This document shows positions 1 to 22,271 of a stretch of 64,000 nt of DNA, piece after piece. This DNA comes from Auanema rhodensis (Eukaryota; Animalia; Nematoda). The notes beneath the pieces were generated by a model. That model did not search any database. It was not told the origin of the DNA and was given only the letters and a program-made list of their open reading frames with translations. Where the stretch lies: positions 5,642,001 through 5,706,000 of the forward strand of contig OZ059896.1 of the NCBI GenBank assembly GCA_964057225.1, in the 5' to 3' direction. Within the stretch, counting starts at the first letter, position 1. Each line of letters begins with the position of its first letter. The position numbers were made by a program, and so were the translations under genes.

Positions 1-3000
1 GACAAAAATTTTTTCCAAAAATTTCAAAATAATTTAGCAAAAAGTAGATGTTTTTAGATTGCTTTTTTCAAGGCAAAAACGATGGACAATGTGATTCAAC
101 GAAAAAATTAATTCTTCAGGGTGAAAATCGAGGATATAAGTGTGAACTTATATCAGTTGATATCTCGGTGCATTTTCAAGCTAGCGCAAATCTGATAGTA
201 CAGATCGACGCAGCTTAACAATCCGCATCGAATGCACTATACTACATTGAGAAACGCTTAGTACAAAAATTAGTTATGATCGTTTGAAAAATGATGCATT
301 AGTGTATGTTGAGTTTCCATGTACACTCAAAATTGCTTCCAAAAACATTTTGACAAAACTTTTTTCGAAAAATTTCAAAATAATTTAGCAAAAAGTAGAT
401 GTTTTTAGATTCCTTTTTTCAAGGCAAAAACGATGGACAATGTTATTCAACGAAAAAATTAATTCTTCAGGGTGAAAATCGAGGATATAAGTGTGAACAT
501 ATATCAGTTGATATCTCGGTGCATTTTTAAGCTAGCGCAAATCTGATAACACAGATCGACGCAGCTTAAAAATCCGCATCGAATGCACTAAACTACATTG
601 AGAAAAGCTTAATACAAAAATTAGTTATGATCGTTTGAAAAATGATGCATTAGTGTATGTTGAGTTTCCATGTACACTCAAAATTGCTTCCAAAAACATT
701 TTGACAAAAATTTTTTCGAAAAATTTCAAGATAATTTAGCAAAAAGTAGATGTTTTTAGATTCCTTTTTCAAGGCAAAAACGATGGACAATGTTATTCAA
801 CGAAAAAATTAATTCTTCAGGGTGAAAATCGAGGATATAAGTGTGAACTTATATCAGTTGATATCTCGGTGCATTTTCAAGCTAGCGCAAATCTGATAGT
901 ACAGATCGACGCAGCTTAAAAATCCGCATCGAATGCACTAAACTACATTGAGAAAAGCTTAATACAAAAATTAGTTATGATCGTTTGAAAAATGATGCAT
1001 TAGTGTATGTTGAGTTTCCATGTACACTCAAAATTGCTTCCAAAAACATTTTGACAAAACTTTTTTCGAAAAATTTCAAAATAATTTAGCAAAAAGTAGA
1101 TGTTTCTAGATTCCTTTTTTCAAGGCAAAAACGATGGACAATGTTATTCAACGAAAAAATTAATTCTTCAGGGTGAAAATCGAGGATATAAGTGTGAACT
1201 TATATCAGTTGATATCTCGGTGCATTTTTAAGCTAGCGCAAATCTGATAACACAGATCTACGCAGCTTAAAAATCCGCATCGAATGCACTAAACTACATT
1301 GAGAAAAGCTTAATACAAAAATTAGTTATGATCGTTTGAAAAATGATGCATTAGTGTATGTTGAGTTTCCATGTACACTCAAAATTGCTTCCAAAAACAT
1401 TTTGACAAAACTTTTTTCGAAAAATTTCAAAATAATTTAGCAAAAAGTAGATGTTTCTAGATTCCTTTTTTCAAGGCAAAAACGATGGACAATGTTATTC
1501 AACGAAAAAATTAATTCTTCAGGGTGAAAATCGAAGATATAGGTGTGAACTTATATCAGTTGATATCTCGGTGCATTTTTAAGCTAGCGCAAATCTGATA
1601 ACACAGATCTACGCAGCTTAAAAATCCGCATCGAATGCACTATACTACATTGAGAAACGCTTAGTACAAAAATTAGTTATGATCGTTTGAAAAATGATGC
1701 ATTAGTGTATGTTGAGTTTCCATGTACACTCAAAATTGCTTCCAAAAACATTTTGACAAAAATTTTTTCGAAAAATTTCAAGATAATTTAGCAAAAAGTA
1801 GATGTTTTTAGATTCCTTTTTTCAAGGCAAAAACGATGGACAATGTTATTCAACGAAAAAATTAATTCTTCAGGGTGAAAATCGAGGATATAAGTGTGAA
1901 CTTATATCAGTTGATATCTCGGTGCATTTTCAAGCTAGCGCAAATCTGATAGTACAGATCGACGCAGCTTAAAAATCCGCATCGAATGCACTAAACTACA
2001 TTGAGAAAAGCTTAATACAAAAATTAGTTATGATCGTTTGAAAAATGATGCATTAGTGTATGTTGAGTTTCCATGTACACTCAAAATTGCTTCCAAAAAC
2101 ATTTTGACAAAACTTTTTTCGAAAAATTTCAAAATAATTTAGCAAAAAGTAGATGTTTTTAGATTCCTTTTTTCAAGGCAAAAACGATGGACAATGTTAT
2201 TCAACGAAAAAATTAATTCTTCAGGGTGAAAATCGAGGATATAAGTGTGAACATATATCAGTTGATATCTCGGTGCATTTTCAAGCTAGCGCAAATCTGA
2301 TAGTACAGATCGACGCAGCTTAAAAATCCGCATCGAATGCACTAAACTACATTGAGAAAAGCTTAATACAAAAATTAGTTATGATCGTTTGAAAAATGAT
2401 GCATTAGTGTATGTTGAGTTTCCATGTACACTCAAAATTGCTTCCAAAAACATTTTGACAAAACTTTTTTCGAAAAATTTCAAAATAATTTAGCAAAAAG
2501 TAGATGTTTCTAGATTCCTTTTTTCAAGGCAAAAACGATGGACAATGTTATTCAACGAAAAAATTAATTCTTCAGGGTGAAAATCGAGGATATAAGTGTG
2601 AACTTATATCAGTTGATATCTCGGTGCATTTTTAAGCTAGCGCAAATCTGATAACACAGATCTACGCAGCTTAAAAATCCGCATCGAATGCACTAAACTA
2701 CATTGAGAAAAGCTTAATACAAAAATTAGTTATGATCGTTTGAAAAATGATGCATTAGTGTATGTTGAGTTTCCATGTACACTCAAAATTGCTTCCAAAA
2801 ACATTTTGACAAAACTTTTTTCGAAAAATTTCAAAATAATTTAGCAAAAAGTAGATGTTTCTAGATTCCTTTTTTCAAGGCAAAAACGATGGACAATGTT
2901 ATTCAACGAAAAAATTAATTCTTCAGGGTGAAAATCGAGGATATAAGTGTGAACTTATATCAGTTGATATCTCGGTGCATTTTTAAGCTAGCGCAAATCT

Positions 3001-6000
3001 GATAACACAGATCTACGCAGCTTAAAAATCCGCATCGAATGCACTAAACTACATTGAGAAAAGCTTAATACAAAAATTAGTTATGATCGTTTGAAAAATG
3101 ATGCATTAGTGTATGTTGAGTTTCCATGTACACTCAAAATTGCTTCCAAAAACATTTTGACAAAACTTTTTTCGAAAAATTTCAAAATAATTTAGCAAAA
3201 AGTAGATGTTTTTAGATTCCTTTTTTCAAGGCAAAAACGATGGACAATGTTATTCAACGAAAAAATTAATTCTTCAGGGTGAAAATCGAGGATATAAGTG
3301 TGAACTTATATCAGTTGATATCTCGGTGCATTTTTAAGCTAGCGCAAATCTGATAGTACAGATCGACGCAGCTTAAAAATCCGCATCGAATGCACTAAAC
3401 TACATTGAGAAAAGCTTAATACAAAAATTAGTTATGATCGTTTGAAAAATGATGCATTAGTGTATGTTGAGTTTCCATGTACACTCAAAATTGCTTCCAA
3501 AAACATTTTGACAAAACTTTTTTCGAAAAATTTCAAAATAATTTAGCAAAAAGTAGATGTTTCTAGATTCCTTTTTTCAAGGCAAAAACGATGGACAATG
3601 TTATTCAACGAAAAAATTAATTCTTCAGGGTGAAAATCGAGGATATAAGTGTGAACTTATATCAGTTGATATCTCGGTGCATTTTTAAGCTAGCGCAAAT
3701 CTGATAACACAGATCTACGCAGCTTAAAAATCCGCATCGAATGCACTAAACTACATTGAGAAAAGCTTAATACAAAAATTAGTTATGATCGTTTGAAAAA
3801 TGATGCATTAGTGTATGTTGAGTTTCCATGTACACTCAAAATTGCTTCCAAAAACATTTTGACAAAACTTTTTTCGAAAAATTTCAAAATAATTTAGCAA
3901 AAAGTAGATGTTTCTAGATTCCTTTTTTCAAGGCAAAAACGATGGACAATGTTATTCAACGAAAAAATTAATTCTTCAGGGTGAAAATCGAAGATATAGG
4001 TGTGAACTTATATCAGTTGATATCTCGGTGCATTTTTAAGCTAGCGCAAATCTGATAACACAGATCTACGCAGCTTAAAAATCCGCATCGAATGCACTAT
4101 ACTACATTGAGAAACGCTTAGTACAAAAATTAGTTATGATCGTTTGAAAAATGATGCATTAGTGTATGTTGAGTTTCCATGTACACTCAAAATTGCTTCC
4201 AAAAACATTTTGACAAAACTTTTTTCGAAAAATTTCAAAATAATTTAGCAAAAAGTAGATGTTTCTAGATTCCTTTTTTCAAGGCAAAAACGATGGACAA
4301 TGTTATTCAACGAAAAAATTAATTCTTCAGGGTGAAAATCGAAGATAGAGGTGTGAACTTATATCAGTTGATATCTCGGTGCATTTTTAAGCTAGCGCAA
4401 ATCTGATAACACAGATCGACGCAGCTTAAAAATCCGCATCGAATGCACTATACTACATTGAGAAACGCTTAGTACAAAAATTAGTTATGATCGTTTGAAA
4501 AATGATGCATTAGTGTATGTTGAGTTTCCATGTACACTCAAAATTGCTTCCAAAAACATTTTGACAAAAATTTTTTCGAAAAATTTCAAGATAATTTAGC
4601 AAAAAGTAGATGTTTTTAGATTCCTTTTTTCAAGGCAAAAACGATGGACAATGTTATTCAACGAAAAAATTAATTCTTCAGGGTGAAAATCGAGGATATA
4701 AGTGTGAACATATATCAGTTGATATCTCGGTGCATTTTTAAGCTAGCGCAAATCTGATAACACAGATCGACGCAGCTTAAAAATCCGCATCGAATGCACT
4801 AAACTACATTGAGAAAAGCTTAATACAAAAATTAGTTATGATCGTTTGAAAAATGATGCATTAGTGTATGTTGAGTTTCCATGTACACTCAAAATTGCTT
4901 CCAAAAACATTTTGACAAAAATTTTTTCGAAAAATTTCAAGATAATTTAGCAAAAAGTAGATGTTTTTAGATTCCTTTTTTTCAAGGCAAAAACGATGGA
5001 CAATGTTATTCAACGAAAAAATTAATTCTTCAGGGTGAAAATCGAGGATATAAGTGTGAACTTATATCAGTTGATATCTCGGTGCATTTTCAAGCTAGCG
5101 CAAATCTGATAATACAGATCGACGCAGCTTAAAAATCCGCATCGAATGCACTAAACTACATTGAGAAAAGCTTAATACAAAAATTAGTTATGATCGTTTG
5201 AAAAATGATGCATTAGTGTATGTTGAGTTTCCATGTACACTCAAAATTGCTTCCAAAAACATTTTGACAAAACTTTTTTCGAAAAATTTCAAAATAATTT
5301 AGCAAAAAGTAGATGTTTCTAGATTCCTTTTTTCAAGGCAAAAACGATGGACAATGTTATTCAACGAAAAAATTAATTCTTCAGGGTGAAAATCGAGGAT
5401 ATAAGTGTGAACTTATATCAGTTGATATCTCGGTGCATTTTTAAGCTAGCGCAAATCTGATAACACAGATCTACGCAGCTTAAAAATCCGCATCGAATGC
5501 ACTAAACTACATTGAGAAAAGCTTAATACAAAAATTAGTTATGATCGTTTGAAAAATGATGCATTAGTGTATGTTGAGTTTCCATGTACACTCAAAATTG
5601 CTTCCAAAAACATTTTGACAAAACTTTTTTCGAAAAATTTCAAAATAATTTAGCAAAAAGTAGATGTTTCTAGATTCCTTTTTTCAAGGCAAAAACGATG
5701 GACAATGTTATTCAACGAAAAAATTAATTCTTCAGGGTGAAAATCGAAGATATAGGTGTGAACTTATATCAGTTGATATCTCGGTGCATTTTCAAGCTAG
5801 CGCAAATCTGATAGTACAGATCGACGCAGCTTAAAAATCCGCATCGAATGCACTATACTACATTGAGAAACGCTTAATACAAAAATTAGTTATGATCGTT
5901 TGAAAAATGATGCATTAGTGTATGTTGAGTTTCCATGTACACTCAAAATTGCTTCCAAAAACATTTTGACAAAAATTTTTTCGAAAAATTTCAAAATAAT

Positions 6001-7371
6001 TTAGCAAAAAGTAGATGTTTTTAGATTCCTTTTTTCAAGGCAAAAACGATGGACAATGTTATTCAACGAAAAAATTAATTCTTCAGGGTGAAAATCGAGG
6101 ATATAAGTGTGAACTTATATCAGTTGATATCTCGGTGCATTTTCAAGCTAGCGCAAATCTGATAGTACAGATCGACGCAGCTTAAAAATCCGCATCGAAT
6201 GCACTATACTACATTGAGAAACGCTTAATACAAAAATTAGTTATGATCGTTTGAAAAATGATGCATTAGTGTATGTTGAGTTTCCATGTACACTCAAAAT
6301 TGCTTCCAAAAACATTTTGACAAAAATTTTTTCGAAAAATTTCAAGATAATTTAGCAAAAAGTAGATGTTTTTAGATTCCTTTTTTCAAGGCAAAAACGA
6401 TGGACAATGTTATTCAACGAAAAAATTAATTCTTCAGGGTGAAAATCGAGGATATAAGTGTGAACTTATATCAGTTGATATCTCGGTGCATTTTCAAGCT
6501 AGCGCAAATCTGATAGTACAGATCGACGCAGCTTAAAAATCCGCATCGAATGCACTAAACTACATTGAGAAAAGCTTAATACAAAAATTAGTTATGATCG
6601 TTTGAAAAATGATGCATTAGTGTATGTTGAGTTTCCATGTACACTCAAAATTGCTTCCAAAAACATTTTGACAAAACTTTTTTCGAAAAATTTCAAAATA
6701 ATTTAGCAAAAAGTAGATGTTTCTAGATTCCTTTTTTCAAGGCAAAAACGATGGACAATGTTATTCAACGAAAAAATTAATTCTTCAGGGTGAAAATCGA
6801 GGATATAGGTGTGAACTTATATCAGTTGATATCTCGGTGCATTTTTAAGCTAGCGCAAATCTGATAACACAGATCGACGCAGCTTAAAAATCCGCATCGA
6901 ATGCACTATATTACATTGAGAAAAGCTAAATACAAAAATTAGTTATGATCGTTTGAAAAATGATGCATTAGTGTATGTTGAGTTTCCATGTACACTCAAA
7001 ATTGCTTCCAAAAACATTTTGACAAAAATTTTTTCCAAAAATTTCAAAATAATTTAGCAAAAAGTAGATGTTTTTAGATTGCTTTTTTCAAGGCAAAAAC
7101 GATGGACAATGTAATTCAACGAAAAAAATAATTCTTCAGGGTGAAAATCGAGGATATAAGTGTGAACTTATATCAGTTGATATCTCGGTGCATTTTCAAG
7201 CTAGCGCAAATCTGATAGTACAGATCGACGCAGCTTAAAAATCCGCATCGAATGCACTATATTACATTGAGAAACGCTTAGTACAAAAATTAGTTATGAT
7301 CGTTTGAAAAATGATGCATTAGTGTATGTTGAGTTTCCATGTACACTCAAAATTGCTTCCAAAAACATTTT

Positions 7372-10300
7372 GACAAAAATTTTTTCGAAAAATTTCAAGA
7401 TAATTTAGCAAAAAGTAGATGTTTTTAGATTCCTTTTTTCAAGGCAAAAACGATGGACAATGTTATTCAACGAAAAAATTAATTCTTCAGGGTGAAAATC
7501 GAGGATATAAGTGTGAACATATATCAGTTGATATCTCGGTGCATTTTTAAGCTAGCGCAAATCTGATAACACAGATCGACGCAGCTTAAAAATTCGCATC
7601 GAATGCACTAAACTACATTGAGAAAAGCTTAATACAAAAATTAGTTATGATCGTTTGAAAAATGATGCATTAGTGTATGTTGAGTTTCCATGTACACTCA
7701 AAATTGCTTCCAAAAACATTTTGACAAAAATTTTTTCGAAAAATTTCAAGATAATTTAGCAAAAAGTAGATGTTTTTAGATTCCTTTTTTCAAGGCAAAA
7801 ACGATGGACAATGTTATTCAACGAAAAAATTAATTCTTCAGGGTGAAAATCGAGGATATAAGTGTGAACTTATATCAGTTGATATCTCGGTGCATTTTCA
7901 AGCTAGCGCAAATCTGATAGTACAGATCGACGCAGCTTAAAAATCCGCATCGAATGCACTAAACTACATTGAGAAAAGCTTAATACAAAAATTAGTTATG
8001 ATCGTTTGAAAAATGATGCATTAGTGTATGTTGAGTTTCCATGTACACTCAAAATTGCTTCCAAAAACATTTTGACAAAACTTTTTTCGAAAAATTTCAA
8101 AATAATTTAGCAAAAAGTAGATGTTTCTAGATTCCTTTTTTCAAGGCAAAAACGATGGACAATGTTATTCAACGAAAAAATTAATTCTTCAGGGTGAAAA
8201 TCGAGGATATAGGTGTGAACTTATATCAGTTGATATCTCGGTGCATTTTTAAGCTAGCGCAAATCTGATAACACAGATCTACGCAGCTTAAAAATCCGCA
8301 TCGAATGCACTAAACTACATTGAGAAAAGCTTAATACAAAAATTAGTTATGATCGTTTGAAAAATGATGCATTAGTGTATGTTGAGTTTCCATGTACACT
8401 CAAAATTGCTTCCAAAAACATTTTGACAAAACTTTTTTCGAAAAATTTCAAAATAATTTAGCAAAAAGTAGATGTTTCTAGATTCCTTTTTTCAAGGCAA
8501 AAACGATGGACAATGTTATTCAACGAAAAAATTAATTCTTCAGGGTGAAAATCGAAGATATAGGTGTGAACTTATATCAGTTGATATCTCGGTGCATTTT
8601 CAAGCTAGCGCAAATCTGATAGTACAGATCGACGCAGCTTAAAAATCCGCATCGAATGCACCATACTACATTGAGAAACGCTTAATACAAAAATTAGTTA
8701 TGATCGTTTGAAAAATGATGCATTAGTGTATGTTGAGTTTCCATGTACACTCAAAATTGCTTCCAAAAACATTTTGACAAAAATTTTTTCGAAAAATTTC
8801 AAAATAATTTAGCAAAAAGTAGATGTTTTTAGATTCCTTTTTTCAAGGCAAAAACGATGGACAATGTTATTCAACGAAAAAATTAATTCTTCAGGGTGAA
8901 AATCGAGGATATAAGTGTGAACTTATATCAGTTGATATCTCGGTGCATTTTCAAGCTAGCGCAAATCTGAAAGTACAGATCGACGCAGCTTAAAAATCCG
9001 CATCGAATGCACTATACTACATTGAGAAACGCTTAGTACAAAAATTAGTTATGATCGTTTGAAAAATGATGCATTAGTGTATGTTGAGTTTCCATGTACA
9101 CTCAAAATTGCTTCCAAAAACATTTTGACAAAAATTTTTTCGAAAAATTTCAAGATAATTTAGCAACAAGTAGATGTTTTTAGATTCCTTTTTTCAAGGC
9201 AAAAACGATGGACAATGTTATTCAACGAAAAAATTAATTCTTCAGGGTGAAAATCGAGGATATAGGTGTGAACTTATATCAGTTGATATCTCGGTGCATT
9301 TTCAAGCTAGCGCAAATCTGATAACACAGATCGACGCAGCTTAAAAATCCGCATCGAATGCACTATATTACATTGAGAAACGCTTAGTACAAAAATTAGT
9401 TATGATCGTTTGAAAAATGATGCATTAGTGTATGTTGAGTTTCCATGTACACTCAAAATTGCTTCCAAAAACATTTTGACAAAAATTTTTTCGAAAAATT
9501 TCAAGATAATTTAGCAAAAAGTAGATGTTTTTAGATTCCTTTTTTCAAGGCAAAAACGATGGACAATGTTATTCAACGAAAAAATTAATTCTTCAGGGTG
9601 AAAATCGAGGATATAAGTGTGAACATATATCAGTTGATATCTCGGTGCATTTTTAAGCTAGCGCAAATCTGATAACACAGATCGACGCAGCTTAAAAATT
9701 CGCATCGAATGCACTAAACTACATTGAGAAAAGCTTAATACAAAAATTAGTTATGATCGTTTGAAAAATGATGCATTAGTGTATGTTGAGTTTCCATGTA
9801 CACTCAAAATTGCTTCCAAAAACATTTTGACAAAAATTTTTTCGAAAAATTTCAAGATAATTTAGCAAAAAGTAGATGTTTTTAGATTCCTTTTTTCAAG
9901 GCAAAAACGATGGACAATGTTATTCAACGAAAAAATTAATTCTTCAGGGTGAAAATCGAGGATATAAGTGTGAACTTATATCAGTTGATATCTCGGTGCA
10001 TTTTCAAGCTAGCGCAAATCTGATAGTACAGATCGACGCAGCTTAAAAATCCGCATCGAATGCACTAAACTACATTGAGAAAAGCTTAATACAAAAATTA
10101 GTTATGATCGTTTGAAAAATGATGCATTAGTGTATGTTGAGTTTCCATGTACACTCAAAATTGCTTCCAAAAACATTTTGACAAAACTTTTTTCGAAAAA
10201 TTTCAAAATAATTTAGCAAAAAGTAGATGTTTCTAGATTCCTTTTTTCAAGGCAAAAACGATGGACAATGTTATTCAACGAAAAAATTAATTCTTCAGGG

Positions 10301-11583
10301 TGAAAATCGAGGATATAGGTGTGAACTTATATCAGTTGATATCTCGGTGCATTTTTAAGCTAGCGCAAATCTGATAACACAGATCTACGCAGCTTAAAAA
10401 TCCGCATCGAATGCACTAAACTACATTGAGAAAAGCTTAATACAAAAATTAGTTATGATCGTTTGAAAAATGATGCATTAGTGTATGTTGAGTTTCCATG
10501 TACACTCAAAATTGCTTCCAAAAACATTTTGACAAAACTTTTTTCGAAAAATTTCAAAATAATTTAGCAAAAAGTAGATGTTTCTAGATTCCTTTTTTCA
10601 AGGCAAAAACGATGGACAATGTTATTCAACGAAAAAATTAATTCTTCAGGGTGAAAATCGAAGATATAGGTGTGAACTTATATCAGTTGATATCTCGGTG
10701 CATTTTCAAGCTAGCGCAAATCTGATAGTACAGATCGACGCAGCTTAAAAATCCGCATCGAATGCACCATACTACATTGAGAAACGCTTAATACAAAAAT
10801 TAGTTATGATCGTTTGAAAAATGATGCATTAGTGTATGTTGAGTTTCCATGTACACTCAAAATTGCTTCCAAAAACATTTTGACAAAAATTTTTTCGAAA
10901 AATTTCAAAATAATTTAGCAAAAAGTAGATGTTTTTAGATTCCTTTTTTCAAGGCAAAAACGATGGACAATGTTATTCAACGAAAAAATTAATTCTTCAG
11001 GGTGAAAATCGAGGATATAAGTGTGAACTTATATCAGTTGATATCTCGGTGCATTTTCAAGCTAGCGCAAATCTGAAAGTACAGATCGACGCAGCTTAAA
11101 AATCCGCATCGAATGCACTATACTACATTGAGAAACGCTTAGTACAAAAATTAGTTATGATCGTTTGAAAAATGATGCATTAGTGTATGTTGAGTTTCCA
11201 TGTACACTCAAAATTGCTTCCAAAAACATTTTGACAAAAATTTTTTCGAAAAATTTCAAGATAATTTAGCAACAAGTAGATGTTTTTAGATTCCTTTTTT
11301 CAAGGCAAAAACGATGGACAATGTTATTCAACGAAAAAATTAATTCTTCAGGGTGAAAATCGAGGATATAGGTGTGAACTTATATCAGTTGATATCTCGG
11401 TGCATTTTCAAGCTAGCGCAAATCTGATAACACAGATCGACGCAGCTTAAAAATCCGCATCGAATGCACTATATTACATTGAGAAAAGCTAAATACAAAA
11501 ATTAGTTATGATCGTTTGAAAAATGATGCATTAGTGTATGTTGAGTTTCCATGTACACTCAAAATTGCTTCCAAAAACATTTT
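7372..11583 (+). repeat. Tandem 6-monomer (2,106-bp) higher-order duplication
   Basis: Rare variants AAAAATTCGC, GCACCATAC (8662/10768), CTGAAAGTAC and GCAACAAG each recur at +2106. Confidence 0.88.
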
Positions 11584-12889
11584 GACAAAAATTTTTTCGA
11601 AAAATTTCAAGATAATTTAGCAAAAAGTAGATGTTTTTAGATTCCTTTTTTCAAGGCAAAAACGATGGACAATGTAATTCAACGAAAAAATTAATTCTTC
11701 AGGGTGAAAATCGAGGATATAAGTGTGAACTTATATCAGTTGATATCTCGGTGCATTTTCAAGCTAGCGCAAATCTGATAGTACAGATCGACGCAGCTTA
11801 AAAATCCGCATCGAATGCACTATACTACATTGAGAAACGCTTAGTACAAAAATTAGTTATGATCGTTTGAAAAATGATGCATTAGTGTATGTTGAGTTTC
11901 CATGTACACTCAAAATTGCTTCCAAAAACATTTTGACAAAACTTTTTTCGAAAAATTTCAAGATAATTTAGCAACAAGTAGATGTTTTTAGATTCCTTTT
12001 TTCAAGGCAAAAACGATGGACAATGTTATTCAACGAAAAAATTAATTCTTCAGGGTGAAAATCGAGGATATAGGTGTGAACTTATATCAGTTGATATCTC
12101 GGTGCATTTTTAAGCTAGCGCAAATCTGATAACACAGATCGACGCAGCTTAAAAATCCGCATCGAATGCACTATATTACATTGAGAAAAGCTAAATACAA
12201 AAATTAGTTATGATCGTTTGAAAAATGATGCATTAGTGTATGTTGAGTTTCCATGTACACTCAAAATTGCTTCCAAAAACATTTTGACAAAAATTTTTTC
12301 GAAAAATTTCAAGATAATTTAGCAAAAAGTAGATGTTTTTAGATTCCTTTTTTCAAGGCAAAAACGATGGACAATGTAATTCAACGAAAAAATTAATTCT
12401 TCAGGGTGAAAATCGAGGATATAAGTGTGAACTTATATCAGTTGATATCTCGGTGCATTTTCAAGCTAGCGCAAATCTGATAGTACAGATCGACGCAGCT
12501 TAAAAATCCGCATCGAATGCACTATACTACATTGAGAAACGCTTAGTACAAAAATTAGTTATGATCGTTTGAAAAATGATGCATTAGTGTATGTTGAGTT
12601 TCCATGTACACTCAAAATTGCTTCCAAAAACATTTTGACAAAACTTTTTTCGAAAAATTTCAAGATAATTTAGCAACAAGTAGATGTTTTTAGATTCCTT
12701 TTTTCAAGGCAAAAACGATGGACAATGTTATTCAACGAAAAAATTAATTCTTCAGGGTGAAAATCGAGGATATAGGTGTGAACTTATATCAGTTGATATC
12801 TCGGTGCATTTTTAAGCTAGCGCAAATCTGATAACACAGATCGACGCAGCTTAAAAATCCGCATCGAATGCACTATATTACATTGAGAA

Positions 12890-12893
12890 AAGC
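12890..12893. other. Target-site duplication AAGC, left copy
   Basis: Empty monomers read GAGAAAAGCTAAATAC. Here the sequence is GAGAAAAGC[TG...CA]AAGCTAAATAC. Confidence 0.92.
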
Positions 12894-13292
12894 TGTAATA
12901 TCCTTAAGTTGGATATTAATATTCCATGATTGACCCTTAGATTGATGTGTTGTAAAAGAAACAATAAGATTTGAGGAAGAGAGAAAGATTTATTATAAAT
13001 AAAAAACATTTAAACAATAAACAAATAAAGATAAAGATAAGTCCGCCAACTGAAGATTCAGTTGAATGGCAAGCTTATATAGCGAATGTTATCAGCATTT
13101 TCCACGAAAGGTTATAAGTTGTCAATGACAATTATAACTATCTCGGAAAATGCTGAAGCTGCAAAATATAACTGATAACATAATACACTAAGACAAGAAA
13201 CTAGAATTATAAAATATAAAATATAAAACACAGAATAAAGAAATACATAAAAATTATAGAAAGAATAAAGTACATAATTATAAAGTATAACA
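12894..13292 (-). repeat. 3' LTR (399 bp)
   Basis: Direct repeat of 21873-22271 (offset 8979). Lies 57 nt past the ORF stop codon. Confidence 0.97.
12989..12994 (-). terminator. Putative polyadenylation signal AATAAA in the 3' LTR
   Basis: TTTATT on +, ~60 nt downstream (minus sense) of the predicted start site, consistent with a U3-R-U5 layout. Confidence 0.55.
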
Positions 13293-13305
13293 TGCTACCG
13301 CTCTT
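13293..13305 (-). promoter_or_regulatory. Putative atypical polypurine tract (AAGAGCGGTAGCA)
   Basis: Lies immediately 5' of the 3' LTR on the minus strand. Purine-rich (10/13) but interrupted by pyrimidines. Confidence 0.55.
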
Positions 13306-13349
13306 GAAGTCCTGTGTCCTCACAGGTATGCATAAGGTTTCCAAAATTT

Positions 13350-16300
13350 TCATAATGTTGCAGCAAGCTTTTTGATGAGATCCTTATGTACTTTTCTCAT
13401 CTTTCCTTGACTCATTTCCAATTCCACATATGAGTTGTATACGCCTGTAATTTTGAACGGTCCATTATAAGTGGGTCGCAATTTGCCGTGAATCGTCATA
13501 TCCTTCAATAGTACCATTTCACCTATTTCAAATATACGTGATGCTATTCGGTTACTATTATTCAGCCGATTTTGTTGTTCAATTGATTTTAATTGAATTT
13601 TTTCTTGAATAGAATCCCAGGTATTTTTCCGGTTCTCATTTCTTTCCAATAATTCGTCATCTTCAGGAGAATTTAGATGAGGTTGTCCTGGTAATTGACG
13701 GTCCATAGGTAGGCGTGCGTCTCTTCCAAATAAAGCAATGTATGGGCTGATTCCGGTAGTTGTACTTGGGATTGTATTTAACGCGAATGTGATTTTAGGT
13801 AATTGTGAGGCCCATTGAGAGACACGGTTTTCAGCACAAGTGGATAAACATTCCTGGATGGTTCGATGTAGTCGTTCCACTTGACCGTTTGTATTTTTGT
13901 GATATGGCAGAGAGAAGGTTTGTACAATTCCAAATTCGTTGCACATTAACTTGAATTCTTTAGATATAAAATTTCCTCCATTGTCAGACACGATGCTCAC
14001 TGGTGGTCCAAAAATGAAGACGAAATTCGTCAGGAACTTTCGGACTGTTTCTTCGGCATTCTGTGTGCGTAAAGGTATGCTCGTTATCCATTTCGAAAAA
14101 GCATCTTGAATAGAAAGAATATATTTAAATCCATTAGTGCTAGGGGAAAAAGGTCCTGTCACATCCATATGAATCCTATCAAATGGTTTTTGTGGGGTAA
14201 CAAACTTTCCATATGGTTCTCTCGTTGTATCATGTTGATTTATTTTCCTTTTTGCGCATGTCAGGCATTGGCTGACGATCTCTTTCGCATCTTCCATCAT
14301 ATTTGTCCAATGGAATCTTCTTGATAATGCTGCATGTGTTCTTTTGATTCCTTGATGCGCTCCAATTCTTGCGTCTTCATGAAAAAGTTTCGCAAGTACT
14401 TGATTCAATGTCTTTTGTTTTGGAATCATAATCCTTGGAGAAAGATATTGTTTGTTAGGTCGAGCATGTAAAACTCCGTCGATAACAATATATCTATCGC
14501 TATTAATCTGTTTAGGTTGTTCCGTTAACATATCAGCAATAGTTTCCTTAATCCATGGTGTTCCTTGTTGTAACTGAATTAGTTTGTCGGTATCCAGAGT
14601 TTCCACATTGGTTACATTTATGAGATAGTTGATGGTTTCTTGGATATCCGTTAAACTTGTTGTTGGCGTTGTCTTCTGTAGCTTCGGTTTAGGACCATCG
14701 TTAGCTTCGTTGCCTATGTATCTGGATAGTGCATCACATACACTATTCATACGTCCTGGACGGTACATAATCACAATATCATATTCCTGGATCATTAACT
14801 GATATTTCGCTAGTCTTCCAATAAGATCTCTTCTACTCATTAGACTGGTTAGTGGTCGATGATCCGTTATTAGCTTAGTTGACGTGCCTAAAACATATGT
14901 GCGAAATTGTTGTAATGCGTAGACGAGTGCCAAAGCTTCTAATTCGATAGGTGGGTATTTTCTTTCTGTAGGTGAGAGCTTCCTACTTGCGAACGCAACA
15001 GGGTGTAATCCATTTCCTGTATCTTGTAGTAAGACTGCTCCAATTGCAATAGTACTAGCGTCACTTTCAATAACAAAAGGTGCTCCATTTGTTGGTGGCT
15101 TCAGAACTGGTGCTGTGCATAGAGCTTTCTTGAGAGTCTCGAATGCTTTTTCACGTTCTTCCGTCCATTCGAAATCTTGATCCTTGTGTGTGAGTTGATA
15201 CAACGGTTCGGCTATTTTGGCGTAGTCTCTGATGAATCGCCGAAAATAATTTGTCATTCCAAGGAATGAACGAATAGCGGTGACCGTTTTAGGAGTTGGA
15301 AATTTCATAACGGCTGTAATTTTTGATGGATCAGGTTGTATTCCATCACGACCAATTATAAATCCAAGAAATTTAACTTGTGTAGCTGCAAATTTGCATT
15401 TACTTAGTTTTGCTTTCATTCCTAATCCTTGTAAAGCTTGTAACACTTCTTCTATATCCTCCAGATGTTGTTCAGCTGTGTTTGATATAATGAGTAGATC
15501 ATCCAGATAAACAAAAAGTCGACATTTTACTTGATTTTGCAAATAGCGAACAGCTGATTGAAATGTATGTGGAGCTCCACAGAGACCCATCGGCATTCTG
15601 CAATATTGATAAACTCCTGATGAGGTCACAAATGCAGTGAGGTGACGGTCTTCTTCACGTAAAGGAATTTGAAAAAATCCCGATACGAGATCGATGTTTG
15701 TGAAGTATCGAGCTCCTGCAGTGCTGTCGATTATTTCTGGTATATGAGGAATAGAATAAGTCTGTTTCTGTGTGACACTATTGAGTGCACGGAAGTCCGT
15801 TACAAAGCGGAATGAGTTGTCTTTCTTCTTGACTAAGACGACTGGACTTGTAAAACTTGATGTTGATGTTTCTATTACTCCTTGGTCCAGCATTTCTTTT
15901 ACTTGACGTTCAACTTCATCCTGTTTACCCAAAGGAACTCGATATGATCGAGATTTGGGCAGGTCCATATCGGTTCTCAAAGTGATTGAATGTTCTATTG
16001 GTCCTTTGAATAATCCAATGTTCCGATCTTCGTTAAAAAAAGCATTTTTGAATCTTCTCAACATAGTTTTGAGATTTTGACGTTGATTTTTAGATAGATC
16101 CGTTGATTCGAATTTTAAGTTATCGAAAGGATTCTTCTCAAAAATAGGCAATTTATCTGACCAATCAGCTTCTGGTGGAATATAGTCCGGTATATGTGGG
16201 ATTCCAATTTCTTCTGCTATTTTTCCTTTTCCAATAATGGTGTTTCCTGTTAACTTCACCTCATAATTTGCTGTATTGATGGCGAATATTGTGAGTGGTG

Positions 16301-19300
16301 AAGTCTTGATAGCAGTAGGTGTGAATTGAATAGGTCCATTTCCACATCGTATAAGAGCGTATTGTTTTGGTTGTAGTTCTTTTGCCAATTGTAGACGAAT
16401 CATAGCTTTAGTTCGGGGTGGAATAATAGATTCTCTAATGTTTATAATTGAAACGGTGTCTGAACTGATGCGAAAGCTCTTCTGGTTAGCGGATAATAAT
16501 GGTAGAAAATGGTTTCCAACTATTAATTGCTTGCGTAGAGCTTGTAGAGAAGTTGTTATTCCTTTTTCTTCTAATGCTTTCATGATGTCCAAACCAAGTA
16601 ACATTTCAGTAGGACAATGTTTATCCTCAGAGATTAAAAATGTGTGTGAAAGATGGTATCCAGCAATAACAATGTCCAACGTTATTGTACCCAGAAAGTT
16701 GAATATTGATCCATTTGCTGCGGTGGCAGAGATTTTAGTTGAGTTGAAATTCTCTTTTCCTAAATAGCGTACTGATGATTCCTTCAAATATGAAACAGAT
16801 GCTCCGCTATCCCATAAAGCTACGAGTCCTCTGCCTTCTGCTTCGATTCTTATATATGGGAGTTCTCTTTTGTTTGTTGCACAGCATCCAACAAAAGGTA
16901 TAATAATAGGAATAAAAGTGATGACAGTAGGAAAATATCTTCGAATAGTTTCATCGTCGGCTGGAACATCGATGTCAGCGTTGAGTAGTTCGTGTTGTTC
17001 AACTGCATTCACATTTAAGATAGGAACTTTCTCTTTGATATAAGATACAACAATAATGTATAATGCTGATCCAAAGATTAATATAACTATCATAACACCT
17101 GCAGAGATAAACATTCTGTTGAGGGATCCAGCAAAGAAATCAACTCCTCGTTCCCATAGTGATGATGCAATATTTTGAGTAGAACTAAAAAGTTCGTTAC
17201 TTTTTGTAAACCATTCTGATAAGCCTGGCAAATTCGCTTGATTCGTGATAACTCGTAGAAAAGTTCTATGAGGATTGGTAGCGAAAATGTGTCCATATGT
17301 TAAGCTTATTGTTCTAACTAAGTTTTCATCGGTGATATTTTCATAAAGATTTCTTTGTGAAAATCGAATGGCTGCTAGATCGGGATACTGATCTGAACCA
17401 ATGTTTAAAGCAGTTACGTTTGTAACTCCGTTGAGGGATTTCCATTCTCCATCCTCTTTCCATATATCATTTTCTACTGTTTCACATGGAATTTCAGTTC
17501 CATATGCTTCCAAATCTGCTGAATCTTGAGGTGCAAAGTAGAGGCGGTCATCATCCGTGATGACGGGTGTTTCTAAATAACACTTATCCTTGTATGTGTG
17601 GTTGCGATAAATGTGAATTGGTTCTATTGGCTGACAGGTTGAAACCCGAATAAGATTCCGTCCAATTATTCGAGCCACTACATCATCTCGTTGCATAATA
17701 GATCGGATAGCAATCGTAGGATTGATATTAAATATAGCTTGCCATGTCTTAATAAGTTCAAGTTGAGCATGACATATGCTGTGATGTTGATGATGAAATT
17801 CTTCGACCAGTATGGTTCTCATTCGTTCAAATCCATAGTTGAGTTTGTTGATGGTAGTTAATGCATCTCGATGTCGAAGTATAGTATTCTGGTGATCAGT
17901 TAAGTGAGTGCCGAATAATTCTTGAGCTTTCTCTATGCTTCCAATCATGGGTTGCATTGATGTCATCCCTTGAATAGTACTAATTGTTTGTTTTGTAGTA
18001 GATGATGTATTTACAACAGGTTTTGAGGTAGCACTAAGAAATCGTGCAGTTGGCGTAGTTTTAGTGGTGATAGAGCGACTGAATACTCTTTTTGTAATCT
18101 CTTCAGGTGCTGGTTTTGAAAACCATGACATTAAATCAGTTAATTGTTTAGCGTCAATATTGATGTTACGGCTGTAGAGATCTTCTTTATTCGAAGGCAT
18201 CGGTATTCCAAAATTGGTTTCTCGGTTTCTGAGTGTCCAGTTATCCAACAGCTTTAATTTCATTTCATATACTTGATCTTTCACTTGTCGTTGCATAAAA
18301 TGACTATGAAAGAACAGTTTCATTCGATAATATTCTATCAGTTGAGGTTGAGAATACTGATAGCGTAGTTCACGAAGTAATTCTTTTGCTTTATATACCA
18401 CAGAACGTGGATCTCCAAATGTGAAGTTGAGATGGTTTTGATATACTGTGAATATCAAAAATTCGAGTGGTGGCACATATTCTGTTTCGGATAAGATTGC
18501 AGGTATTTGTATCAATTCCCATAATTTATCTCTTGCAACCGAAATTGTAGAATTGCCTGGTTTAACTATTCTTTTTATATAATTGATAGGAAGTCGGTGT
18601 GCTAGTTGACCGATGACAAAACTAGGCTCCATTTGTTCGATCCACATTTTTGTAATCATCTTGCTTTCTTCTCCTCCTAGAGCATGTAGTAAGAGAATAT
18701 TCGGATCGCGGAAGTCTTTTAAATTTGCCCAGTAATCTATAGTATGATCAGTAATGTTCAAAACATGGACAGCTGACAGCAAAAATTGATGATATCGAGC
18801 AATAACAGTCAGGTTCTGATATTCGTTGCTAACTGATTGATAGTGATACCAGTTATGAATATATCGTATGGTATTTCCGCCAGACGTGACAGTATATCTA
18901 GCAAACGGTAGATCCAATATTTGAATAGGAGTTAACTTATATTCCATTTCTGAGCGAAATGACGCAATTAAGGATGAATTTGTTGAACGTTTATAGCGTT
19001 GGCGTGAAGGATCCATTTGATTATCCAAATAACTTGTTAGATCCAGTAGAGAATATGCATGCGGATAATCAATAAACGAGACAAGAGTCTCAGTAGTGGA
19101 TTCAAAAATTGGTGAAGAAAAACAAGATTGAGTTGTAGTAGATGCTGAGGTGTTGGCTAAGACAAGTGCTGTTTCTAGACTTGATATTAGCAGTGTTTGA
19201 TCTCCAAGTATTCCATACAGAGGTCCAATACGTGTGTATTGGCATGGTGCTCGGGGTGTGGGTGGTTTCCAAACTACTGAACCATCTCCAAATGTACAGC

Positions 19301-20807
19301 TTCCCATTTGAGCTTTACAGCCTTCGGCGTTGACAATTAAGTCAGATACAATAGTATTGTCCTTTAAATTTGTAATAACTCCTCGCTCCATCACAAATTG
19401 AGTTAAGTTGGCGCATTGAGTAAAACTGAAGAAACGTTCCGGTTCATATACTGGCTTAGGAGCTTCATATGTAAGTGGATTAGCGCTCAACAGTTTTTCA
19501 TTTTTCCATTTCTTGTCTCGAGCAGCTATACGGCATTCTTCTACAGATACATATCCATTACCAATGATGGTGTCATTGCTTTCTCGGAACCAAAATTGAT
19601 CCGTTACACATAATCGATAGATGCGTGTATAACATTTCCACGCTTCCCATGTTACGACGGTTTGTTTAGGAATGAACAATTCAACGTTAACTTGATGAGC
19701 TTGTTGAATTGCTTTCCGTTGGCATCCTGTTATCTCTGGTGGTGTCATCAGAATTCCTCCTTTATGAGCTAAACATAGTTGATATGAAGCATTCACAGTG
19801 GGAAGCAGAAATGTGCAGATTATTGTTGTGAGCAGGAATGGTAATGCAATAGTATTTATATTGAATCGAGGTTTCCATCGTCGTTGATTGCCTTGATTCT
19901 CTCTTGGATAATTGTCGCGATTATTCCTGGCAAAGTTGTCTCGATTTTCTCTTTGATAATTGTTGCGAGGTTCTCTCGAATGGTGATTACTCTCCATTGA
20001 GTAGTTGTTTCCATAATTTTGTCGAGGGCCAGAGTTCCTGCTGAATTTATTTTTGAAATTCTTCCAAGGGTTTCTTGAATTGTTGCCATTGTTCCGTTCG
20101 AAATCTCGTGGCTGCTGATGGTTCCTTTGGTTCCTATTTTCCTTCATGGTGATCTTCTGAACTGCAGAGATCAACTCTTGCATAGTTGAGTTTTCTTCAT
20201 GCTGTTTTTTATAGTTAGCACGAATTGCTTCTTCAAAACGTGCTGTCCTTTTTGCTTCCTCATAAGTCTTCGGATCTTTTCCTTGAACAATTATGCCTAA
20301 ATCAGCGTTCAATCCATTTAAGAAAGCTGATCTTAATATGAGCTCTCTTTCTCGATCAGTTGGGCTCATAATACTGGAAGCCATTTCTTCCAAGTATGAG
20401 GCAAACTGAGTAACAGTTTTCTCTCCTTGCGTCGAGCGTAGCAACTTTGCGATCGTGAAATTCCTTTCCGTGGCAGGGCAAAGTAACTCTGCCAATTGTG
20501 AAACAAGGTCTTTCCAAGGTCCTCGTTCACGAATTTCGGAAGGAATCGAGTTATATGCAGAGATCGCAGAATCATTCTGCTGAAGCAGCAGAGGAAGAAG
20601 AAAAATTCTTTCAATTACAGAAAGTCCCGCAGCATTCGCGAATCGGTTAAATATATCGATGTACGATCGAAAGCTTCGGCTACCATCGTATTTGGGGCAG
20701 TGTGGACTGCCTAGAACTTTTGTTAAGTTTTTGGTCAACTCTGGAGATGCCATTAAATTAGGCGTTTCCAGAGTTGAATCTCTGTTTGATTGCTCATGTG
20801 GTCTCAT
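13350..20807 (-). CDS. Gag-Env-Pol polyprotein (2,485 aa from the first ATG; frame is open to 21053)
   Basis: Single frame with no stop or frameshift, ending in TGA at 13350-13352. The track start at 20876 is a TTG. The first in-frame ATGs are at 20807 (MRPHEQ) and 20753 (MASPEL). Confidence 0.93.
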   Translation of the reverse strand: MRPHEQSNRDSTLETPNLMASPELTKNLTKVLGSPHCPKYDGSRSFRSYIDIFNRFANAAGLSVIERIFLLPLLLQQNDSAISAYNSIPSEIRERGPWKDLVSQLAELLCPATERNFTIAKLLRSTQGEKTVTQFASYLEEMASSIMSPTDRERELILRSAFLNGLNADLGIIVQGKDPKTYEEAKRTARFEEAIRANYKKQHEENSTMQELISAVQKITMKENRNQRNHQQPRDFERNNGNNSRNPWKNFKNKFSRNSGPRQNYGNNYSMESNHHSREPRNNYQRENRDNFARNNRDNYPRENQGNQRRWKPRFNINTIALPFLLTTIICTFLLPTVNASYQLCLAHKGGILMTPPEITGCQRKAIQQAHQVNVELFIPKQTVVTWEAWKCYTRIYRLCVTDQFWFRESNDTIIGNGYVSVEECRIAARDKKWKNEKLLSANPLTYEAPKPVYEPERFFSFTQCANLTQFVMERGVITNLKDNTIVSDLIVNAEGCKAQMGSCTFGDGSVVWKPPTPRAPCQYTRIGPLYGILGDQTLLISSLETALVLANTSASTTTQSCFSSPIFESTTETLVSFIDYPHAYSLLDLTSYLDNQMDPSRQRYKRSTNSSLIASFRSEMEYKLTPIQILDLPFARYTVTSGGNTIRYIHNWYHYQSVSNEYQNLTVIARYHQFLLSAVHVLNITDHTIDYWANLKDFRDPNILLLHALGGEESKMITKMWIEQMEPSFVIGQLAHRLPINYIKRIVKPGNSTISVARDKLWELIQIPAILSETEYVPPLEFLIFTVYQNHLNFTFGDPRSVVYKAKELLRELRYQYSQPQLIEYYRMKLFFHSHFMQRQVKDQVYEMKLKLLDNWTLRNRETNFGIPMPSNKEDLYSRNINIDAKQLTDLMSWFSKPAPEEITKRVFSRSITTKTTPTARFLSATSKPVVNTSSTTKQTISTIQGMTSMQPMIGSIEKAQELFGTHLTDHQNTILRHRDALTTINKLNYGFERMRTILVEEFHHQHHSICHAQLELIKTWQAIFNINPTIAIRSIMQRDDVVARIIGRNLIRVSTCQPIEPIHIYRNHTYKDKCYLETPVITDDDRLYFAPQDSADLEAYGTEIPCETVENDIWKEDGEWKSLNGVTNVTALNIGSDQYPDLAAIRFSQRNLYENITDENLVRTISLTYGHIFATNPHRTFLRVITNQANLPGLSEWFTKSNELFSSTQNIASSLWERGVDFFAGSLNRMFISAGVMIVILIFGSALYIIVVSYIKEKVPILNVNAVEQHELLNADIDVPADDETIRRYFPTVITFIPIIIPFVGCCATNKRELPYIRIEAEGRGLVALWDSGASVSYLKESSVRYLGKENFNSTKISATAANGSIFNFLGTITLDIVIAGYHLSHTFLISEDKHCPTEMLLGLDIMKALEEKGITTSLQALRKQLIVGNHFLPLLSANQKSFRISSDTVSIINIRESIIPPRTKAMIRLQLAKELQPKQYALIRCGNGPIQFTPTAIKTSPLTIFAINTANYEVKLTGNTIIGKGKIAEEIGIPHIPDYIPPEADWSDKLPIFEKNPFDNLKFESTDLSKNQRQNLKTMLRRFKNAFFNEDRNIGLFKGPIEHSITLRTDMDLPKSRSYRVPLGKQDEVERQVKEMLDQGVIETSTSSFTSPVVLVKKKDNSFRFVTDFRALNSVTQKQTYSIPHIPEIIDSTAGARYFTNIDLVSGFFQIPLREEDRHLTAFVTSSGVYQYCRMPMGLCGAPHTFQSAVRYLQNQVKCRLFVYLDDLLIISNTAEQHLEDIEEVLQALQGLGMKAKLSKCKFAATQVKFLGFIIGRDGIQPDPSKITAVMKFPTPKTVTAIRSFLGMTNYFRRFIRDYAKIAEPLYQLTHKDQDFEWTEEREKAFETLKKALCTAPVLKPPTNGAPFVIESDASTIAIGAVLLQDTGNGLHPVAFASRKLSPTERKYPPIELEALALVYALQQFRTYVLGTSTKLITDHRPLTSLMSRRDLIGRLAKYQLMIQEYDIVIMYRPGRMNSVCDALSRYIGNEANDGPKPKLQKTTPTTSLTDIQETINYLINVTNVETLDTDKLIQLQQGTPWIKETIADMLTEQPKQINSDRYIVIDGVLHARPNKQYLSPRIMIPKQKTLNQVLAKLFHEDARIGAHQGIKRTHAALSRRFHWTNMMEDAKEIVSQCLTCAKRKINQHDTTREPYGKFVTPQKPFDRIHMDVTGPFSPSTNGFKYILSIQDAFSKWITSIPLRTQNAEETVRKFLTNFVFIFGPPVSIVSDNGGNFISKEFKLMCNEFGIVQTFSLPYHKNTNGQVERLHRTIQECLSTCAENRVSQWASQLPKITFALNTIPSTTTGISPYIALFGRDARLPMDRQLPGQPHLNSPEDDELLERNENRKNTWDSIQEKIQLKSIEQQNRLNNSNRIASRIFEIGEMVLLKDMTIHGKLRPTYNGPFKITGVYNSYVELEMSQGKMRKVHKDLIKKLAATL
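13353..14490 (-). other. Integrase (HHCC, DD35E, GPF motif; no chromodomain)
   Basis: FH...AHQG...CLTC; MDVTGP (D 14163-14165), SDNG (D 13983-13985), VER (E 13875-13877) with 35 residues between the second D and E; YNGPFKI. Confidence 0.96.
14715..15075 (-). other. RNase H (approximate limits)
   Basis: ESDAS..IGAVL, ELEALA, TDHRPL, DALSR. Confidence 0.95.
15300..16030 (-). other. Reverse transcriptase (approximate limits)
   Basis: SPVVLVKKKD, DFRALN, IDLVSGFFQI, TAF, MPMGL, YLDD (15498-15509), KCKF, FLG. Confidence 0.97.
16497..16862 (-). other. Retropepsin aspartic protease
   Basis: ALWDSGASVSYL (D at 16809-16811), ATAANGS flap, MLLGLDIM. Confidence 0.92.
17037..19787 (-). other. env: Envelope glycoprotein, class III fusion-protein-like (aa 364-1280)
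   Basis: AWKC..C..FWF..SVEEC (rhabdovirus-G-like fusion domain pattern). Furin site RYKR|S at 18987-18998. KLNYGF..IC..Q..W..INPT..VVARIIG..C..CY..P (gB/chuvirus-like helix and crown pattern). About 13 N-x-S/T sequons. TM MFISAGVMIVILIFGSALYIIVVSYI at 17037-17114. Confidence 0.82.
19788..19850 (-). other. Internal signal peptide for Env (aa 343-363, IALPFLLTTIICTFLLPTVNA|S)
   Basis: Basic n-region (RRWKPR), hydrophobic core, then Pro and V-N-A at positions -3 to -1, followed by a Cys-rich domain with glycosylation sequons. Confidence 0.8.
19851..20807 (-). other. gag: Gag domain (capsid-like region plus N/R/Q-rich basic tail)
   Basis: PKYDGSRSFRSYIDIFNRFA and QGEKTVTQFASYL...FLNGL resemble retrotransposon capsid motifs. 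No CCHC knuckle. Confidence 0.8.
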
Positions 20808-21859
20808 GTTGAGTAGGAGCTTCAGAGGTAGTTTTTCGCGCTGGGGAGTTTTTTCTTTTTTCGGTGTTACAGCCAAGTGTGTTGGCGTTTTTTCGTCGTC
20901 CGATGGACTTAAATCGTTGTCAAACGAGTCGTCACTATCGGGAAAAGGAAATCGAGAAATACGATTTCTCTTGTCTCTTAATCTTTGAGAGGTACGGAAA
21001 GTCGTATCCGTATAATTATTCTTGGAGGTTGCCGTTTTGGAAAAGGAGGAAAGTCAGAACAATCTACAATGTAAAATAGTGGAATAAGTTAGTAAACAAG
21101 ATAAGAATATGAATAGTTAATAGTGAATAAATTAGTGAATAACGTGAAAAAAAAAATCGAAGAAAAAAAAGATATATAATAATATGGGTTGAAGATTAAT
21201 TAATTAATGAACTCATACAAAAACAAACTATAGAGAGGAAAAAAAAAAGTGAATATAATTAATTGTTAAGATGATGATAGGATATGATTATGTGACAATG
21301 TGATTCATAAATTAGAGAAGTGAGTATGGCGGACAAATCAAAATCTCAATTGTTACTGAATAACAATGAATTACCAAACAAGGCATCTTTCAAATTCCAA
21401 AGTCTTTGTTTCAACTTGAATCAACAATCAAAAAATTATGAGAGGAAGGTTTAAATTCAAATATGACAAATGATACAGCGGATGTTATTTTCTTACAGTG
21501 GCCATTCTGTTAGTACAAACTTGTAATCTTTATCAAAAATATCGCAAATTGACTTTATTAAGGTCCAATTTTGCTTATATCAAACAGCTTTTCCATTTCC
21601 AAAAAATATATATTTTTCGCCACAATGAAAAATCAAAAGTACAACTGCGCAGAAACAAAAAGAAATCGAAAAGTTGGCCAATTCAGTATCTCACCCTTGC
21701 GCAAAATATCAACCCTGTTTATTAAAAAAATGAGTGAGACCCTTCGTACTGAATTGGAAAGAGAGGTGGTAGCCCAGGGAAATAGCTCAAAAAAATTCTC
21801 TTTAACTGAATGATAATTCATAATTTAATCGAGTTCGAAAAATCGTAAAAAGATTCTAA

Positions 21860-21872
21860 GGTGGAACCTCCA
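21860..21872 (-). promoter_or_regulatory. Primer-binding site for tRNA-Gln (TGGAGGTTCCACC)
   Basis: Abuts the 5' LTR and begins TGG. The + strand reads GGTGGAACCTCCA, matching the 3' end (including CCA) of metazoan tRNA-Gln as I recall it (...CTCGGTGGAACCT-CCA), 13 nt. Confidence 0.88.
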
Positions 21873-22271
21873 TGTAATATCCTTAAGTTGGATATTAATA
21901 TTCCATGATTGACCCTTAGATTGATGTGTTGTAAAAGAAACAATAAGATTTGAGGAAGAGAGAAAGATTTATTATAAATAAAAAACATTTAAACAATAAA
22001 CAAATAAAGATAAAGATAAGTCCGCCAACTGAAGATTCAGTTGAATGGCAAGCTTATATAGCGAATGTTATCAGCATTTTCCACGAAAGGTTATAAGTTG
22101 TCAATGACAATTATAACTATCTCGGAAAATGCTGAAGCTGCAAAATATAACTGATAACATAATACACTAAGACAAGAAACTAGAATTATAAAATATAAAA
22201 TATAAAACACAGAATAAAGAAATACATAAAAATTATAGAAAGAATAAAGTACATAATTATAAAGTATAACA
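21873..22271 (-). repeat. 5' LTR (399 bp)
   Basis: TGTAATATCC...GTATAACA on +, with imperfect terminal inverted repeat TGTAATA/TGTTATA. Directly followed on the minus strand by the PBS. I saw no mismatch versus 12894-13292. Confidence 0.97.
22027..22060 (-). promoter_or_regulatory. LTR core promoter: TATATAA (22060-22054) and Inr-like TCAGTT (A at 22030)
   Basis: Minus strand reads TATATAAGCTTGCCATTCAACTGAATCTTCAGTT. The TATA begins exactly 30 nt upstream of the A of TCAGTT. The copy in the 3' LTR is at 13048-13081. Confidence 0.6.

Follow-up and report, generated by a model that had tools for sequence, protein, structure and literature searches.

A predicted class III envelope fusogen with a large inserted domain in an intact Ty3/gypsy element of the nematode Auanema rhodensis

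A 64,000-nucleotide stretch of the Auanema rhodensis genome (assembly GCA_964057225.1, contig OZ059896.1, positions 5,642,001 to 5,706,000; hereafter the window) contains a whole Ty3/gypsy long terminal repeat (LTR) retrotransposon of 9378 bp (12894..22271) in which an envelope (env) region lies between gag and pol. The env of this intact nematode gag-env-pol element is very probably a class III membrane-fusion protein, as predicted from sequence and model, which was likely inherited with the polymerase and would act as proposed below. Elements of this type and fusogens of this class have both been published before, so that the present case contributes a further member, young and intact; the sole unexplained part is a large inserted domain without recognisable fold. 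All element features are on the minus strand, and env residues are numbered from position 19787, directly after the predicted signal-peptidase site.

Pfam PF24664 (Monjiviricetes_fusion) matched the C-terminal env part only (E 2.4e-12, with a score above its cut-off) and also matched 47 of the 65 alignment members; PF00606 (gB) reached E 4e-5 with a score under the curated cut-off. A phmmer search of 1.84 billion representative sequences yielded 223 matches at E<=0.001, the best 150 of which were listed. The motif pattern from which an earlier, sequence-only reading had proposed a class III fusogen is thus beyond chance. Its motifs also occur where that reading had placed them (EAWKC 19646, NKLNYGF 17849, LSEWF 17222, in addition to the two loop motifs given below), all in one minus-strand open reading frame (ORF), but its residue numbers 428-430 and 482-485 fit no start, as FWF is located at ORF 487-489 or env 65-67. 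Structural matches to the env model, a monomer prediction with a predicted template modelling score (pTM) of 0.46, were led by class III proteins, in agreement with the proposed fold. The best matches among viral proteins were Monjiviricetes glycoproteins rather than herpes gB, and no F-like (class I) or phlebovirus Gc-like (class II) folds were listed in the structural match rows. The model displays a fusion domain nested in a PH domain, a long central helix and a crown, and env is predicted to be a class III (gB/chuvirus-type) membrane-fusion protein with a post-fusion gB-like fold. Two uncharacterised entomopoxvirus proteins, BFVD Q9YVZ3 and W6JPK9, ranked 8 and 11 among the structural matches.

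Two hydrophobic loops are predicted at the tip of the fusion domain. In the model, F65-W66 occupies the turn of a hairpin made by strands 46-64 and 67-78, corresponding to predicted fusion loop 1 (FWF, env 65-67, 19587..19595), and a second loop, 109-122, runs into strand 123-140 and includes predicted fusion loop 2 (env 117-122, 19422..19439) with the motif FFSF (19422-19433). Among 75 relatives covering both env parts, an aromatic residue was present in loop 1 in 72 and in loop 2 in 71, the corresponding shares in average windows being 46% and 56%. In loop 2, aromatic conservation is highest at columns 117 and 119, slightly upstream of FFSF. C60 and C125 were both present in 49 of these relatives, both absent in 25 and discordant in one, a covariation which, read as a disulfide, would hold the predicted loops side by side. 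Hairpin structure, aromatic conservation and cysteine covariation thus support FWF and FFSF, already named in the sequence-only reading, as fusion-loop candidates.

The env region begins with an internal signal sequence (19788..19850, hydropathy 2.1, predicted cleavage after TVNA), followed by a gB-like N-terminal strand with C5 and C22 (env 1-27, 19707..19787), predicted to be part of the crown and a tether to the central helix. The compact fusion domain (env 45-179, 19251..19655), closest in sequence to rabies G 54-184, splits the PH domain into a first part (env 28-44) and a gB domain II-like second part with C182-C222 (env 180-245, 19053..19250). The furin motif RYKR (env 264-267, 18987..18998) and the inserted domain (env 268-612, 17952..18986) are followed by a gB domain III-like central helix with C672 (env 615-688, 17724..17945), a gB domain IV-like crown (env 689-800, 17388..17723) and a C-terminal arm with the membrane-proximal region (17103..17387), in which the sequence-only reading had seen an amphipathic segment and which was modelled at low confidence with a predicted local distance difference test score (pLDDT) of 40-48. 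Behind a transmembrane anchor (17046..17102, hydropathy 2.8), env runs in frame into pol. With a signal sequence and one anchor, env is by sequence prediction a type I membrane protein; an internal env signal sequence was found in 57 of the 71 relatives with an internal env, and a single hydrophobic segment between ectodomain and protease in 31 of 34 sequences.

The furin motif and the insert behind it go beyond what the sequence-only reading had recorded. The insert comprises about 345 cysteine-free residues predicted to be helical, with a serine/threonine-rich stretch at its end (17952-18101), and according to the alignment to gB of varicella-zoster virus (VZV) and Epstein-Barr virus (EBV) it is located at the position of the gB furin linker, which sits on the outside of the trimer. 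Searches with the insert, in the case of structure as part of the env model, identified no Pfam, Atlas or credible structural match. Linker length was measured alike in 106 two-part sequences out of 156 (one row being a zero-length artefact) and was at most 60 residues in 59 of the 106; the maximum was 517, and the present linker, with 410 residues, is the third longest. Among the 38 linkers of at least 90 residues, the insert matched that of a single Auanema element only (E 5e-11, 86 of 388 columns identical, 22%), and other long linkers form conserved families of their own (E down to 1e-94) that were unrelated to the present insert by hhalign. The insert holds 7 N-glycosylation sequons versus 3.0 expected (p 0.03), and the Auanema copy holds only 2.

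The insert would project outward from the trimer and serve as a variable module for attachment or shielding, the weakest step of the proposed mechanism, to which we assign an even chance. Somewhat less probable is that the insert is a passenger, either a captured or expanded linker without a role in entry or an accessory protein freed by a second cut. With the furin loop facing away from the trimer, such a passenger could be tolerated, and the short linkers of the 59 relatives suggest that the insert is dispensable for the fusogen; its lack of cysteines and a second strict furin motif in several long linkers (e.g., P0108, P0015, P0012, P0016) also fit a passenger. However, the present insert lacks a second strict furin motif, and its in-frame position and homology to the insert of the Auanema element, together with the conservation of the other long-linker families, argue for selection on a fold. 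The excess of sequons also speaks against a passenger, although it is not shared by the Auanema copy.

The sequence-only reading had divided env into a rhabdovirus G-like and a gB/chuvirus-like half. Likeness of the C-terminal part to gB and chuvirus glycoproteins was confirmed by PF24664, PF00606 and the family profile, and the rhabdovirus likeness of the fusion domain was recovered in weak form, as the family profile aligned rabies G 54-184 to env 45-179 (E 1.4e-5; two further alignments gave E 1.4e-4 and 6e-4). This match was lost with a shallower profile from a 15-row alignment, indicating that the signal is near the detection limit. The division into halves did not hold: in the family profile, env 1-22 aligns to the gB N-terminal strand including both cysteines, and an unbroken alignment to VZV and EBV gB runs from env ~170-245 through the furin linker into the central helix. 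As gB-like sequence thus occurs on both sides of the rhabdovirus-like stretch (env 1-22 and 166-245), the layout is nested. The structural alignment extended over model residues 1-812 for gB domain IV and over 28-257 for gB domain II. Homology to rhabdovirus G (rabies, Chandipura and vesicular stomatitis virus, VSV) did not extend across the whole ectodomain but was confined to the fusion-domain region, env 45-179 by profile and mostly 27-246 by structure, the remaining env being gB-like. A fusion domain nested in a PH domain within a gB-like scaffold suggests that the likeness to rhabdovirus G stems from a common class III ancestor, with a compact fusion domain, and not from a splice of two genes; the nested plan is common to VSV G, gB and gp64, which share the fold (PMC12574954).

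It is improbable that recombination placed a fusion domain of rhabdovirus origin in the gB-like scaffold of an ancestral env, which would recast the proposed halves as a domain swap. Such a chimera would account for the family profile's rabies G match being confined to env 45-179 and its herpes gB matches to the rest of env, for the match of Pfam Rhabdo_glycop_FD to 2 of the 65 members (best E 4e-4), and for BFVD rhabdovirus rows aligning over ~250-330 columns. However, chu-like and xinmo-like glycoproteins of 625-750 residues (ranks 15, 25, 29 and 36) align over 907-958 columns across both env parts, and as individual genes of RNA viruses thus already show this layout, recombination is unnecessary. 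In addition, 95 of the 150 listed matches contain both env parts, among them sequences with DUF5641, a domain presumably linked to BEL/Pao elements, and the rabies match is itself borderline.

Env was most likely inherited along with the polymerase. Of the 150 listed matches, 30 were looked up, and those among them with a species name are all nematode (Auanema, Caenorhabditis, Steinernema, Panagrolaimus, Acrobeloides, Aphelenchus), with Auanema and Caenorhabditis providing the top named env matches. These relatives, the primer-binding site and the putative 43-46-nt GT-AG introns described below fit a nematode host. Reverse transcriptase (RT) was detected in 16 two-part relatives, with a query that would miss BEL/Pao RTs, and env preceded it in every one of them. 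An RT-RNase H (RH) tree of 24 rows, all from relatives found here and with neither named reference elements nor outgroup, grouped the element with those of C. brenneri (64% RT-RH identity) and C. japonica at a Shimodaira-Hasegawa-like approximate likelihood ratio (SH-aLRT) of 99. The same relatives were grouped in a 76-row tree of the env N-part at a support of 0.86, which makes joint inheritance of env and pol the most likely history, and distances of the N- and C-parts were correlated (rho 0.41, p 0.005). Two or three aspartic-protease stretches were detected by Pfam scan in the relatives P0006, P0010 and P0036, and a second integrase zinc-finger stretch in P0006. Three Steinernema sequences of 668-721 residues on chromosome-scale contigs (P0052, P0103, P0153) contain env without detected gag or RT and could be solo or domesticated env genes.

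The sequence-only reading had proposed an independent capture of a class III glycoprotein by the gypsy lineage. In favor of a recent capture from an RNA virus, Monjiviricetes glycoproteins outrank herpes gB among the structural matches, and the title of the 2022 paper of Sacco et al. in J Gen Virol speaks of capture of RNA-virus glycoproteins. The GAG-ENV-POL elements are, in addition, not monophyletic in the pol tree as described in the text of PMC13524379. A recent capture is nevertheless very unlikely, as the closest env relatives among the matches listed are nematode gag-env-pol elements which are also closest by RT, and env identity is 22-30% to element relatives versus 7-18% to viral proteins. 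A capture new to such elements was also not supported, because gB-type env in nematode Ty3/gypsy elements is already published. An acquisition long ago, at the root of the nematode clade, would still fit, whereas a capture special to this element would not.

According to the text of Chary and Hayashi (eLife 2026; PMC13524379), Ty3/gypsy elements of nematodes, bryozoans and flatworms carry only env of the HSV/gB kind (HSV, herpes simplex virus), in GAG-ENV-POL order and with five env domains, fusion loops and lineage-specific cysteine bridges; Sacco et al. (2022) are credited there for the nematode elements. The present element, with env between gag and pol and both env and pol homologous to nematode members, belongs to these GAG-ENV-POL errantiviruses and, as far as they are described there, shares their gene order, five-domain gB-type env, two fusion loops and near-loop cysteine bridge. 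It also shares the tRNA-Gln primer site: the reverse complement of its primer-binding site (PBS, 12 nt, 21861..21872) is identical to the 12-nt tRNA-Gln PBS of Caenorhabditis latens errantivirus 4 and C. tropicalis errantivirus 1 listed in Supplementary file 1 of that study. When compared by eye, the relative P0013 reads almost identically to domain I-II as published for C. latens errantivirus 4. The present element differs from the published nematode errantiviruses by the domain after the furin motif. No description of an insert in these envs emerged from the literature searched, and none after the furin motif is mentioned in the main text of PMC13524379, although its figures, its supplements or Sacco et al. 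(2022) may hold one.

The Monjiviricetes glycoproteins (chu-, xinmo-, nyami- and rhabdo-like; PF24664), several of which align across both env parts, differ from env in being stand-alone viral genes of 500-750 residues. Herpesvirus gB aligns in the N-terminal strand, the second part of domain II, the furin-linker position, the central helix, the crown and four cysteine pairs, but the present fusion domain is smaller than gB domain I and without sequence match to it. Tas is a BEL/Pao element with a gB-like env. MFUS-1, a nematode Maverick fusogen, is described as a gB-like class III protein of 866 amino acids with bipartite hydrophobic loops (bioRxiv 10.1101/2022.07.12.499685). Both resemble the present env, by description only, as gB-like fusogens of nematode mobile elements, but belong to other element classes.

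From the element anatomy, domain order, homology and the gB-like post-fusion model, we infer the following mechanism. The internal signal sequence would thread the polyprotein once into the endoplasmic reticulum and the single anchor would stop transfer, so that Gag and Pol would stay cytosolic. Signal peptidase would free the env N-terminus, the element protease would free Gag and Pol, and furin would cut at RYKR, the two furin pieces being tied together by disulfides C5-C718 and C22-C672, as assigned by gB alignment. Carried as trimers by budded particles, env would push its two aromatic loops into the target membrane and then refold to a hairpin, and the resulting fusion would allow the element to move from cell to cell, with soma to germline as the most plausible route.

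Several points weigh against this interpretation. Fusion, cleavage, trimer and particle are proposed here on the basis of sequence and model, the env model is monomeric with a modest pTM, and the role given to the insert is a candidate one, at even chance. A strict furin motif occurs in only 45 of the 106 linkers. The tree of the env C-part (76 rows) groups the relatives shared with the polymerase at a support of only 0.40, and env and RT distances were not significantly correlated over 17 rows (rho 0.18, p 0.09; rho 0.25, p 0.06). Finally, a second, weaker hydrophobic segment before the protease (16878-16934, ORF 1374-1392, score 2.1), with two such segments present in 3 of the 34 sequences, would put Pol in the lumen if it crossed the membrane.

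The element is flanked on both ends by the 4-bp target-site duplication AAGC, and its 399-bp LTRs (5' LTR, 21873..22271, TG...CA; 3' LTR, 12894..13292) are identical, showing that the insertion is young. A single ORF of 2567 codons stop to stop (13350..21053), with Met codons at 20807 (first) and 20753 (second), encodes gag, signal sequence, env, anchor, protease (PR), RT, RH and integrase (IN) in this order. Gag (19851..20807) matched Retrotrans_gag weakly (E 0.013) and is clearly homologous to the gag of relatives; Pol (13350..16847) comprises protease (16578-16847), RT (15354-15833), RNase H (14781-15167) and integrase (13899-14411), with the gypsy-type Pfam domains RT_RNaseH_2, Integrase_H2C2 and rve in that order. 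LTR ends, PBS, target-site duplication and PR-RT-RH-IN order are those of Ty3/gypsy (Metaviridae) elements, and none of the 14 Pfam families matched in the element was DUF1759, DUF5641 or Peptidase_A17, which we take to be BEL/Pao marker domains. The 5' leader (21054-21860) is long and T-rich, with ~1.05 kb from PBS to the first Met, and displayed most of the indel variation among sequencing runs. The remaining window (1-12893 and 22272-64000) is filled by a homogeneous 351-bp satellite array of ~156 copies with 96-100% identity, in which the element is the sole break.

DNA contigs from runs of three studies cover the element, and one of these runs may be the window's own source. Over 16898-20018, a single DNA contig of a further run differs from the window by 7 substitutions and no gap, strongly indicating that env and insert are not an assembly artefact. 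A joint in DNA run X3 and presumed-RNA run X12 drops 6253 bases (13681-19935; env and most of pol) and is an internally deleted, env-less derivative. The gag-covering contigs of X2 and X3 have two stop codons and probably derive from such deleted copies. Contigs of the presumed-RNA runs X12 and X13, both of one study, share the absence of two GT..AG stretches, of 43 and 46 nt, within 13639-14090 on the plus strand; they overlie integrase antisense to the element, and the joint, absent from DNA run X3, possibly represents a spliced antisense transcript.

Herpes gB requires gH/gL according to the text of PMC13524379, where entry of gB-type env without gH/gL is stated as an open question, and the present element encodes no such partner. 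In a bolder and rather doubtful reading, class III fusogens of nematode retroelements would have in their furin loop a plug-in site for unrelated folded domains of 100-450 residues, the present one being a new fold and a built-in receptor-binding or trigger module, an in-cis counterpart of gH/gL that sets the cells or species entered, and env, with a gB scaffold and a rhabdovirus-size fusion domain, a sequence bridge between herpes gB and rhabdovirus G. For receptor choice and triggering in gB-type envs, the variable furin-loop domain is a concrete candidate, and the env family, by tying herpes gB to rhabdovirus G by sequence profile, helps to trace the history of class III fusogens.
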